Below, piece after piece: positions 1 to 25,025 of a stretch of 64,000 bases of DNA. Numbering within the stretch: position 1 is the first letter of the stretch; every line of letters begins with the position of its first letter. Origin of the DNA: a virus (taxonomy: Duplodnaviria; Caudoviricetes); IMG/VR virus record IMGVR_UViG_3300033076_001341, positions 1-64,000 of that record. One strand, written 5' to 3'. The position numbers and the translations under genes were made by a program. Below the pieces are notes generated by a model, which saw only the letters and a list, made by a program, of their open reading frames with translations, did no database searches and had not been told where the DNA came from.

Positions 1-218
1 TCTACTTGTTGAAGTTGAAGTGGGATAACGAATTGAAGTGGTTCTACCAAAACGGTACCATGGACTACATGGGTCGTTCACAAGGTTTCAACAGCTCTGG
101 AAACTTCAACGGTTACAGAGTGTACATGACTCAAACAATGCCTGCGATCTGGGTTAAAGATCCTACGAAGGTGTTGAAGATCGTTATGAGAAACCCCATC
201 ACTGGAACTTCTTTGTAA
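1..218 (+). CDS. Major capsid protein, C-terminal fragment (truncated by window start)
   Basis: Frame open from position 3 to TAA at 216-218. The ending (...SSGNFNGYRVYMTQTMPAIWVKDPTKVLKI) resembles crAss-like capsid C-termini. Codon bias is strong and the gene sits at the head of the conserved structural block. Confidence 0.7.
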   Translation, partial: YLLKLKWDNELKWFYQNGTMDYMGRSQGFNSSGNFNGYRVYMTQTMPAIWVKDPTKVLKIVMRNPITGTSL

Positions 219-225
219 CCTTCTA

Positions 226-264
226 AGGACTCGCCGGGTGGTTCGCTACCCGGCTTGTAGTCCT
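226..264 (+). other. Stable RNA hairpin downstream of capsid stop
   Basis: GCCGGGTGG(233-241)-TTCG-CTACCCGGC(246-254) with UUCG loop, extended by AGGACT(226-231)/AGTCCT(259-264). No U-tract follows, so it is more likely a 3' stabiliser or processing hairpin than a terminator. Confidence 0.7.
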
Positions 265-311
265 GAACTGGACAGTCGGTGTCTCACAGCGTTCAAGTCG
301 CTGCAGTTCGC
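264..311 (+). ncRNA. tRNA-like element lacking the anticodon arm
   Basis: 7-bp acceptor TGAACTG(264-270)/CAGTTCG(304-310); D-arm GAC-AGTCGGT-GTC(271-283); 3-nt linker TCA; T-arm CAGCG-TTCAAGT-CGCTG(287-303) matching the GTTCRANYC consensus. No encoded CCA. Confidence 0.7.
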
Positions 312-350
312 AAACCGGTAAATCCGGACAACCAACCAACAACCAACCAA

Positions 351-1367
351 ATGAGCGTTACAATCGTAGAAAGCAACGTCACCGCGAAGCGGGGATCTGC
401 TATTGCCATCCGACCCTATGTTGAATCAGGTTCAACAAACATGGGTCTTGAAAAGTACCAACTTGCCCTGTTTGACGGGATCTTCCACGAAGAGCAGTTA
501 GCATGTCTGGAGCGAAACGGAATCAAGCAGTATGTCACCGGACTCAATGAGTTCGCTCCCGACGTACAGATGTTACCCGAAGAAGAGAAAGCCGCTAAGA
601 TCAAAGAGATCCGCACGCTGGTAAGTACCCTGGAAAAATCACTTGCTTCCAATGTCATTGAAATCAATGACGAGCAGTTCTGGAACAAGGTAAAAGTATT
701 GCGTCCGGACAACGGCGACTTCTGGGACAAAATTGTCCTGAGAATCAGCAACGATCCGATTTTCATTGACCCGGTGAAAGATCCCTATGATCTGATCAAG
801 TTGCGGGCAATTGAAGCAGGAGGATTCTCGCTGGTAGCAAAAAGCATGGAAAGCGCTAGAACCATGCCTAAACCACCCAAGTTTTACCTGGATAAGTCAG
901 AAGAGACTGCCGGTACAAAGACTGAGTGGAAGAAAGTACGTAACAAAGCATTGGCTGAGTTGCAGAAGCTCTTTGATAAGAACGTGAACAAACTCCTGTA
1001 CGTATGTAAGGTGATTGATCCAAACAGTGCACAGTACCGCAAGAGTACGCCCAATGACATCATGTATGATATCATGGACCGCTACATCAACGGGGAGTCT
1101 ATTGAGACCAACAAGCGTCGTGCAGCACAGACATTCCTGGATGTTGCCGCTCTTGACATGGAAACACTCAAGCTTCGTGCAATTGTAAAGGATGCGACCT
1201 ACTACAAAATGATTGCCTTCCGTGGCGATGGATACATCTACCACATGAAGTCAAGCACTGTACTGGGTAAGAATCCAAGTGATGTGACTGAATACCTGAA
1301 GAACCCTTTGAATGAAGACGTTCTGATGGACTTGAGCAAGAACCTGGAGAAATTCTGGAATAACTAA
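351..1367 (+). CDS. Conserved crAss-like structural-module protein (gene 75-like), 338 aa
   Basis: Long ORF directly after the capsid gene. ATG 351 is preferred over GTG 279 because 264-327 is structured RNA and 328-350 is an A/C-rich leader. Assignment is by synteny. Confidence 0.6.
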   Translation: MSVTIVESNVTAKRGSAIAIRPYVESGSTNMGLEKYQLALFDGIFHEEQLACLERNGIKQYVTGLNEFAPDVQMLPEEEKAAKIKEIRTLVSTLEKSLASNVIEINDEQFWNKVKVLRPDNGDFWDKIVLRISNDPIFIDPVKDPYDLIKLRAIEAGGFSLVAKSMESARTMPKPPKFYLDKSEETAGTKTEWKKVRNKALAELQKLFDKNVNKLLYVCKVIDPNSAQYRKSTPNDIMYDIMDRYINGESIETNKRRAAQTFLDVAALDMETLKLRAIVKDATYYKMIAFRGDGYIYHMKSSTVLGKNPSDVTEYLKNPLNEDVLMDLSKNLEKFWNN

Positions 1368-1371
1368 TCGT

Positions 1372-1414
1372 ACCTCGGGTGCTTACCGTAAGATCAGCAC
1401 CCAGGTCTTTTTTT
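1372..1414 (+). terminator. Intrinsic terminator
   Basis: ACCTCGGGTGCT...AGCACCCAGGT stem followed by CTTTTTTT. Confidence 0.7.
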
Positions 1415-1419
1415 AAGAT

Positions 1420-3970: not shown

Positions 3971-3989
3971 GTTGTTTAATACAGAAAAA

Positions 3990-4009
3990 TTCGTTAAATT
4001 CTATTAGTA
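3990..4009 (+). promoter_or_regulatory. Putative phage late promoter (TAAATT-N6-GTA)
   Basis: TTCGTTAAATTCTATTAGTA. The 15-mer TAAATTCTATTAGTA is identical to 21798-21812 and lies directly after a terminator. Confidence 0.6.
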
Positions 4010-4027
4010 GAGTTCCTCACTTACGTC

Positions 4028-9773: not shown

Positions 9774-9792
9774 TTCGTAAATTTTTAATGTA
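9774..9792 (+). promoter_or_regulatory. Putative phage late promoter (TAAATT-N6-GTA)
   Basis: TTCGTAAATTTTTAATGTA in an AT-rich intergenic gap. Confidence 0.55.
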
Positions 9793-9800
9793 GGATATTT

Positions 9801-21793: not shown

Positions 21794-21812
21794 TTAGTAA
21801 ATTCTATTAGTA
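21794..21812 (+). promoter_or_regulatory. Putative phage late promoter (TAAATT-N6-GTA)
   Basis: TTAGTAAATTCTATTAGTA; 15-nt identity with 3995-4009. Confidence 0.6.
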
Positions 21813-25006: not shown

Positions 25007-25025
25007 TTCGTAAATTATTAGTGTA
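25007..25025 (+). promoter_or_regulatory. Putative phage late promoter (TAAATT-N6-GTA)
   Basis: TTCGTAAATTATTAGTGTA, ending 3 nt before ATG 25029. Confidence 0.55.

Follow-up and report, generated by a model that had tools for sequence, protein, structure and literature searches.

How do processing enzymes recognise a tRNA? The features read by RNase P, RNase Z and the CCA enzyme are the acceptor/T arm and the elbow, and the acceptor/T-arm stack with its G19-C56 elbow is also read by T-loop modifying enzymes, the ribosome and T-boxes (PMC4810234). The elbow itself is built by consensus residues of the D loop and the T loop (PMC4810234). In plant mitochondria, t-elements have a conserved T arm and a tRNA-like but non-canonical fold, and lie within mRNA precursors, by coding regions (Forner et al. 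2007, PMC1920247). They are cut by RNase P, which forms the upstream 3' end, and by RNase Z, which forms the downstream 5' end, and the released t-element gains C, CA or CCA (PMC1920247). The substrates of RNase P include M3 RNA, C4 RNA, T4 gene 32 mRNA and polycistronic mRNAs (PMC11143913). The crAss-like phages are uncultured or hard to study and their RNA biology is almost unexplored; no description of a tRNA-like element in these phages was found in the literature searched.

The DNA analysed here, called the window, is the initial 64 kb of a 127,939-bp IMG/VR record. The record has a crAss-like layout, with every gene on the plus strand and giant ORFs at 32-56 kb. An earlier note on this DNA placed a tRNA-like element between the capsid gene and the next structural gene (Table 1). 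The capsid half of this description is borne out: a diverged full copy of the capsid gene at the end of the record matches the Pfam family PF23898 (Crass_capsid, E 1.8e-35), and relatives carry a 538-aa PF23898 gene in the equivalent position. The word structural is not, since the downstream product is a conserved hypothetical protein of 338 aa. Its start, MSVTIVE, is conserved, and an N-terminal extension of the ORF to GTG279 was rejected because in-frame stops lie upstream in two relatives (L003 and L114). Nothing significant was found for the protein in PHROG, Pfam, a PDB sequence search, the ESM Atlas, or by AlphaFold and Foldseek; the AlphaFold model has a pLDDT of 65.6, and the sole hint is a stretch of ~60 residues that matches RecA chains with E about 0.5. 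GenBank phages gave neither a DNA match to the locus nor a protein match to the 338-aa product. The closest GenBank phage capsid, at 29.5%, is that of Leptolyngbya phage Lbo-JY46, and the spacer of this phage has no tRNA-like element.

Table 1. Positions of the features at the capsid/338-aa locus (window coordinates) and of the pseudoknot in related loci.
Feature	Position	Strand	Basis and remarks
Major capsid protein gene, 3' end (71 codons)	1..218	+	ORF list; stop TAA 216-218
Hairpin 1	226..264	+	MFE; inner stem CGCCGGGTG/CTACCCGGC, outer stem GGACT/AGTCC; abuts the element
Anticodon-less tRNA-like element	264..311	+	Direct reading, MFE, covariation, covariance model
Hairpin 3, CCGG-TAAAT-CCGG	315..327	+	MFE; relatives have CCGG-GATA-CCGG or ATCGCG-ATA-CGCGAT
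A/C-rich unstructured leader	328..350	+	Direct reading, alignment; no Shine-Dalgarno
338-aa conserved hypothetical protein gene	351..1367	+	ATG at 351; structured-RNA slot always 5' of this gene
Strong hairpin, then T7	1372..1414	+	Fold of spacer 1368-1419
Pseudoknot of the sister clade	L005:2898-2965 and 26 other distinct loci, e.g. L007:2906-2980, L011:2895-2969		

The final 2.6 kb of the record (125324-127939) repeat the region of window 1-1416 in diverged form, including the 3' part of the capsid gene, the spacer and the 338-aa gene. The two copies share 78% DNA identity over the spacer stretch compared and 89% protein identity, and the tRNA-like element is present in the terminal copy as well. 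The repeat probably stems from a second strain, joined where the circularly permuted assembly has its ends, in which case the record is longer than one genome unit.

The spacer between the capsid gene and the 338-aa gene is 132 nt long (219-350), and its structure was seen by direct reading and by MFE folding. In the acceptor stem of the element, 265-270 pair with 304-309, with an optional U264-G310 wobble and an unpaired C311. The D arm has a 3-bp stem (271-273 GAC, 281-283 GTC) and the loop AGTCGGT (274-280), a linker of only 3 nt (TCA, 284-286) separates the D and T arms, and the T arm (287-291 CAGCG, loop 292-298 TTCAAGT, 299-303 CGCTG) runs straight into the 3' acceptor strand. The D loop fits the tRNA consensus A14-R15-Y16-Y17-G18-G19, and the T loop fits T54-T55-C56-R57-A58 with the closing pair G53-C61. 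The earlier note had described the 5-bp T stem and its loop, the D loop with its GG and the TCA linker, all of which are reproduced by reading and folding, and the small downstream hairpin, which MFE folding also recovers. It had further expected that tRNA finders would miss the element, and ARAGORN indeed reports no tRNA in the window at default settings. At a lowered threshold, a 'tRNA-Ser' was called at 235-311; this was ignored as one of 88 mostly spurious calls, only three of which coincide with tRNAs found at default settings.

Could such a fold arise by chance? The whole spacer folds better than its shuffles (z -3.4), and the 48 nt of the element alone fold only modestly better (z -1.5). 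A descriptor comprising a 6-bp acceptor, a D arm with GG and a 5-bp T arm with a TTSRA loop is expected to find 0.057 matches per random 128-kb genome; in the actual genome it matches only the element and its diverged duplicate. The case against chance is made by conservation together with covariation.

With the 338-aa protein as query, 42 loci were found in IMG/VR and 42 in metagenomes, as well as several Logan/ENA contigs. The contigs come from lakes, and samples with such DNA include IMG 3300046779 and 3300036945 and the runs SRR19603271, SRR31802166, ERR4682888 and SRR23967299. In all, the element is seen in eight distinct versions (the window, L002, L003, L004, L114, L115, L117 and L125), and in a tree of the 338-aa protein their carriers form one clade with support of 100/97. 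The D stem, the D-loop pattern A-G-Y-N-G-G-T, the T-loop pattern T-T-C-R-A-N-T and the G53-C61 pair are invariant in all eight. The linker varies freely (TCA, ACT, ACA, CTT, CA, ATTT) and thus holds no anticodon-like information. The fourth pair of the T stem is seen as AU, CG, GC and UA, and L004 has a rewritten acceptor (GGTATTG/CAATATC) and T stem (TAGGG/CCTTA) with all pairing kept. The acceptor had been described as 7 bp long: six pairs are conserved, and the seventh is U-G in the window and mismatched in five relatives, with L004 alone having a true pair.

In a pair count over the eight versions, 99.1% of the cells are paired and three pairs show two-sided changes; a set of eight sequences holds few independent events. 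The observed covariation score was reached by no shuffle, and slid registers fall to 27-57% paired. RNAalifold recovered the same structure from a plain MAFFT alignment of whole spacers. Identity among the eight versions is 66-98% in the element, compared with 42-71% at four-fold degenerate sites of the adjacent gene. The element is non-coding, as in-frame stops lie 12 nt 5' of the ATG in L003 and L114 and the spacing to the ATG varies from 31 to 39 nt.

A covariance model (R1) built from the eight versions scores 75.2 bits on the window element. It finds one copy per genome, both in the record and in the complete genomes of relatives, and no match in distant loci. Weak matches at window 59138, window 43949 and G001:79282 were rejected as chance or coding sequence. 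A relaxed scan of the genome for an acceptor plus T arm gave 10 matches where 9.4 are expected; a dispersed family of this simple type is absent. Among 27 matches in a scan of IMG/VR with an exact 15-mer of the D arm, only one was a real element, on the L004 contig, and the rest were chance; a scan of metagenome contigs returned only distant relatives, all of which lack the element.

In none of 48 related loci is there a full tRNA at or near the site. Together with the conserved, covarying structure, this argues against the decaying pseudogene that the earlier note had named as an alternative, and the conservation in relatives on which it had made its proposal depend is found, with the fold kept in eight versions. 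The element is confirmed as a real mimic of the top half of a tRNA, with a structure under selection and an intact elbow signature.

The element does not stand alone in the spacer. Hairpin 1 had been described as a UUCG hairpin, and the hairpin itself holds up; the UUCG loop is not conserved, as relatives have TTCTT, GAAA, CTTT or ATTTT in its place. In the RNAalifold consensus of the eight sequences, the GC-rich inner stem is invariant while the loop varies, so that UUCG is incidental. Hairpin 1 would be a poor terminator since no T-run follows it. Each of the eight versions has a stable hairpin whose end lies 0-5 nt 5' of the acceptor. Hairpin 1 takes this place in the window, L003 and L004, whereas the other five have an additional hairpin there, hairpin 2; the stem of hairpin 2 covaries (CCATGGA/TCCATGG versus CCAGGAG/CTCCTGG). 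On the 3' side, an A-rich linker of 4-9 nt leads to hairpin 3, where both sides of the stem are CGCG instead of CCGG in L003 and L004. The sequence CAACCAACCAA that precedes ATG 351 is nearly invariant.

How is the locus transcribed? A scan of 1-1500 for sigma-70 promoters and terminators found nothing, the terminator scan having overlooked the hairpin at 1372-1414 owing to its loop-length rule. This hairpin is a probable intrinsic terminator, judging from its predicted fold, and would close a transcription unit comprising the capsid and 338-aa genes. A recurring spacer motif, TTCGT(A)AAATT..TATTAGTR, lies just 5' of genes in the window at 3980-4010, 9775-9795, 21795-21812 and 25008-25025 and is a candidate phage promoter; the motif TTCGTAAATT..TATTAGT, present in four other spacers of the window, is absent from the capsid/338-aa spacer. 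The simplest reading is that the capsid and 338-aa genes are co-transcribed, with the element within the transcript, given that the spacer lacks the promoter motif and a strong terminator follows the 338-aa gene. The terminator region (1368-1419) ends 5 nt before the next start codon, which leaves no room for a promoter. The later head genes would thus need read-through or an internal promoter.

Several other structured RNAs are encoded in the record, outside the window. A Pistol self-cleaving ribozyme lies at 107674-107734 on the minus strand (Rfam RF02679, 57.7 bits, cut-off 34.5), and a tmRNA at 114661-115036 on the plus strand (RF00023, 93 bits), with a tag peptide that ends in EYEMAA according to ARAGORN; a tRNA-Thr and a tRNA-Met are located directly downstream of it. 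Abnormal matches to the tRNA model, neither of which is called by ARAGORN at default settings, were found at 102339-102420 and 106700-106805, both on the minus strand. One of these bodies contains a large insert and measures 106 nt; in the other, the D and anticodon arms are odd and CCA is encoded. Pfam returned nothing for the small ORFs at 102-108 kb. Finally, the 3' portion of a tRNA-Met(CAT)-like sequence is found at 85142-85205 on the plus strand, with the anticodon loop CTCATAA and the T arm CCAGG TTCGATC CCTGG, followed by CTTCGCA.

Is the tRNA shape the only structure found at this position? Across clades, a structured RNA occupies a slot 31-45 nt before the start codon of the 338-aa gene, and the tRNA shape is one among several occupants. 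A sister clade of 27 rows (support 100/99) has another conserved RNA 35-45 nt before this start codon, an H-type pseudoknot in which the 3' strand of S2 falls downstream of S1. Within the 7-bp S1 (CTCCTRA/TYAGGAG) lie the 5' strand of S2 and a hairpin of 3 bp and a 7-nt loop, which directly adjoins the 3' strand of S1. The pairs of the pseudoknot are kept at 96.7%, two-sided changes are seen in 7 of 16 pairs and five of the six S2 pairs covary; conservation extends to the loop AACCTTGACGTGGTT and the tract CTTTAAACTA. No Rfam family matches this structure, which makes it a candidate new RNA motif, and a suspected resemblance to the pistol ribozyme was not borne out by Rfam. Some members of the clade have a small ORF of ~40 codons, rich in lysine (e.g. 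MAGKNKAAMSNKIV...), inserted between the capsid gene and the pseudoknot (L011, L015-L021 and L025-L032, at about 2700-2860 of each). The pseudoknot stays beside the 338-aa gene even where this small ORF, and not the capsid gene, is upstream. It follows the 338-aa gene and not the capsid gene; thus, the slot goes with the 5' flank of the 338-aa gene.

Other branches differ again. In L119:945-995 (= L120), a branch sister to the tRNA-like clade, the slot holds a compact three-way junction (fold z -4.0) with a 10-bp closing stem, a GCAA-loop hairpin and, stacked on the closing stem, a T-arm-like hairpin (GGGAG TTCGTAA CTCCC). This junction may be a diverged homologue of the tRNA-like element. Another multi-stem fold is present in L092, L094 and L095, and only a terminator is found in L121-L124 and the most distant clade.

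What might the element do? The reading favoured here, which is tentative and given slightly less than an even chance, is that it would serve as a t-element-like signal cut by RNase P, and perhaps by RNase Z, separating the capsid mRNA from the downstream message. The element would act in cis within a late bicistronic (or longer) capsid and 338-aa transcript. Its coaxial acceptor/T-arm helix and its D-loop/T-loop elbow would recruit host RNase P, and a cut at the 5' edge of the acceptor, at about 263/264/265, would leave a capsid mRNA that ends flush with hairpin 1 and is expected to resist 3' exonucleases. A second cut at ~310/311, past the unpaired 3' nucleotide, would be made by RNase Z or another 3' enzyme and may free a mini-tRNA of 47-48 nt. 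The downstream mRNA would start a few bases before hairpin 3, with an A/C-rich leader of 35-40 nt. The result would be to uncouple the stability and dosage of the abundant capsid protein from the next gene. We infer co-transcription, every cleavage and the effect on stability.

Processing is favoured since RNase P cuts phage and operon RNAs, t-elements provide a precedent and the enzymes concerned read the elbow. The layout also fits, with a hairpin 0-5 nt upstream in all eight versions, a small hairpin downstream and a spacer that lacks the promoter motif. The other RNA-processing signals in the genome, namely the Pistol ribozyme, the odd tRNA-shaped genes and the tmRNA, count in its favour. 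A minimal substrate of bacterial RNase P consists of a coaxial acceptor and T stem of ~12 bp, a T loop and a single-stranded 5' leader, which the enzyme normally contacts; a 3' RCCA is helpful for type A enzymes. Set against this model, most versions of the element have a stack of 11 bp (6+5), and 12 bp are reached in the window, where U-G is included, and in L004; the leader before the hairpin is 0-5 nt and the 3' tail is N-CAAA. Several points count against processing: the conserved acceptor has 6 bp and the stack 11 rather than 12, nucleotides 8-9 are missing, CCA is not encoded, and the window and L003 have no single-stranded leader, their upstream hairpin being directly next to the acceptor. 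Moreover, sister clades fill the slot with a pseudoknot or with only a terminator, so that the slot, if it has one function, need not be strictly tRNA-shaped. That the pseudoknot stays with the 338-aa gene behind the small ORF speaks as much for a role in the 5' UTR as for one in forming the 3' end of the capsid mRNA.

This last point bears on the possibility that the slot serves the 338-aa gene as a structured module of its 5' UTR, independent of tRNA-processing enzymes. The module could be a translational operator for a phage or host protein, or a block to 5' or 3' exonucleases that sets the stability of the flanking messages, and the tRNA shape would be merely one usable compact three-way junction among several folds. 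The slot is always 31-45 nt ahead of the same start codon, its folds differ by clade (tRNA-like, L119-type junction, covarying pseudoknot with a conserved loop) and the pseudoknot tracks the downstream gene. There is also precedent in the classic translational operators with pseudoknot or tRNA-like leaders, those of T4 gene 32, thrS and the S15 and S4 operons. However, an arbitrary junction needs neither the invariant GG of the D loop nor the TTCRA of the T loop, which are the signature of the tRNA elbow, and no candidate binding protein is at hand, and no RNA-binding fold is recognisable in the 338-aa protein. On balance, this explanation is considered unlikely, though well short of negligible. 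A broader proposal would make the slot a fixed 'punctuation slot' of freshwater crAss-like phages, with interchangeable RNAs, be it a tRNA top half, a related three-way junction or the pseudoknot, that would all present an acceptor/T-arm-like helix to RNase P or RNase Z. This is doubtful; if true, it would bring mitochondrion-style tRNA punctuation to the late mRNAs of bacterial viruses, and the excised, CCA-tailed mini-tRNA would possibly also be active in trans.

Could the released RNA be the purpose of the structure? An excised mini-tRNA, perhaps CCA-tailed, might act in trans as a decoy or sponge for a defence nuclease that reads the acceptor/T arm, for a tRNA-modifying enzyme or for SmpB. 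The parts kept are the elbow and acceptor, the anticodon arm being dispensable, and the phage has a tmRNA, three tRNAs and odd tRNA-shaped genes elsewhere. The earlier note had proposed an abundant decoy, but there is a single copy per genome, in cis in a late structural operon, whereas counter-defence is usually needed early, and the slot RNAs of sister clades are not tRNA-like. Anticodon nucleases cannot be decoyed without an anticodon loop, and the freedom of the acceptor sequence in L004 means that no specific tRNA identity is mimicked. A decoy is thus improbable. Still less can be said for a put-like antiterminator, very unlikely here, by which the element would modify RNA polymerase for read-through of the terminator after the 338-aa gene into the head genes: the element is upstream of that terminator, and read-through is needed with the next gene only 5 nt beyond it, but Rfam shows no similarity to put or EAR, and to our knowledge there is no tRNA-shaped antiterminator RNA. 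Finally, the element is clearly tRNA-derived in form, and the genome has real tRNAs as well as the separate 3' tRNA-Met fragment at 85.1 kb, as might be expected of a functionless, decaying pseudogene or an attP-type tRNA fragment. Against this stand the compensatory changes, the strong conservation where synonymous sites are near saturation and the lack of a full-length tRNA in all 48 relatives, and this origin is extremely improbable. An attP copy of the 3' half of a host tRNA, which would hold only the 3' part with its sequence fixed by identity to the host gene, does not fit, as both acceptor strands are present, covarying and, in L004, rewritten; such a copy would need no 5' strand that covaries with the 3' strand.

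For the dosing of capsid versus accessory proteins from the long late transcripts of crAss-like phages, a conserved tRNA top half offers a testable handle. Under the t-element-like reading, host RNase P and RNase Z should cut at defined nucleotides, the capsid mRNA should be capped by a hairpin and a small by-product with a CCA tail should arise. If this reading is true, tRNA punctuation, as found in mitochondria and for a few lncRNAs of eukaryotes, would reach bacterial viruses as well, and a class of elements overlooked by tRNA finders and Rfam would be accounted for. The element could also serve as a compact processing cassette in Bacteroidota-type expression systems.

How does the element compare with known RNAs? 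A canonical tRNA (RF00005) is a cloverleaf with an anticodon arm and a variable region, whereas the element has 3 nt between its D and T arms, and RF00005 was not found in window 1-1000 (Rfam, E<=10). The canonical elbow features (T54-T55-C56-R57-A58, G53-C61 and G18-G19) are all present and invariant in the eight versions; direct reading finds no G3-U70 alanine identity pair. The tRNA-like domain of tmRNA and the module of Y RNA (YrlA) share with the element an acceptor and T arm, a reduced D region and the absence of an anticodon arm. In contrast to the element, these are larger RNAs with extra domains, an mRNA-like ORF and pseudoknots in tmRNA and a Ro-binding stem in YrlA, and Rfam gave neither a tmRNA nor a Y RNA match to the element. 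The sole Rfam match is to mascRNA-menRNA (RF01684), at 23.4 bits for the window and 24.9 bits for L004, below the cut-off of 42.5. Like mascRNA and MEN-beta, the element has an acceptor, a short D arm with GG and a T arm with a TTCAAGT-type loop, and mascRNA is an RNase P/Z processing signal located where a long transcript ends. However, mascRNA comes from a nuclear lncRNA of eukaryotes and has retained a short anticodon stem (13 model positions are absent in the element); it is a structural analogue, not a homologue.

Phage and bacterial non-tRNA substrates of RNase P are, so far as is known, loose acceptor-stem mimics or transient structures and, unlike the element, are not known to be complete acceptor, D and T top halves with an elbow. 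In P1/P7 C4 RNA, phi80 M3 RNA, T4 gene 32 mRNA and operon spacers, cutting by RNase P shapes expression (PMC11143913). With t-elements, the phage element shares a non-canonical tRNA-like fold, a conserved T arm and, on the co-transcription reading, a place inside an mRNA precursor beside coding regions; it lies between two genes on the same strand. The t-element motif GGTTCRANYCC is matched in full only by L004 (GGGTTCGAATCC), the window having CGTTCAAGTCG. The t-elements differ in being organellar and mostly of fuller cloverleaf form, and their cleavage is experimental, whereas for the phage element it is proposed. By this comparison, the element belongs to neither the tRNA nor the mascRNA family and would be most like a t-element in its working.
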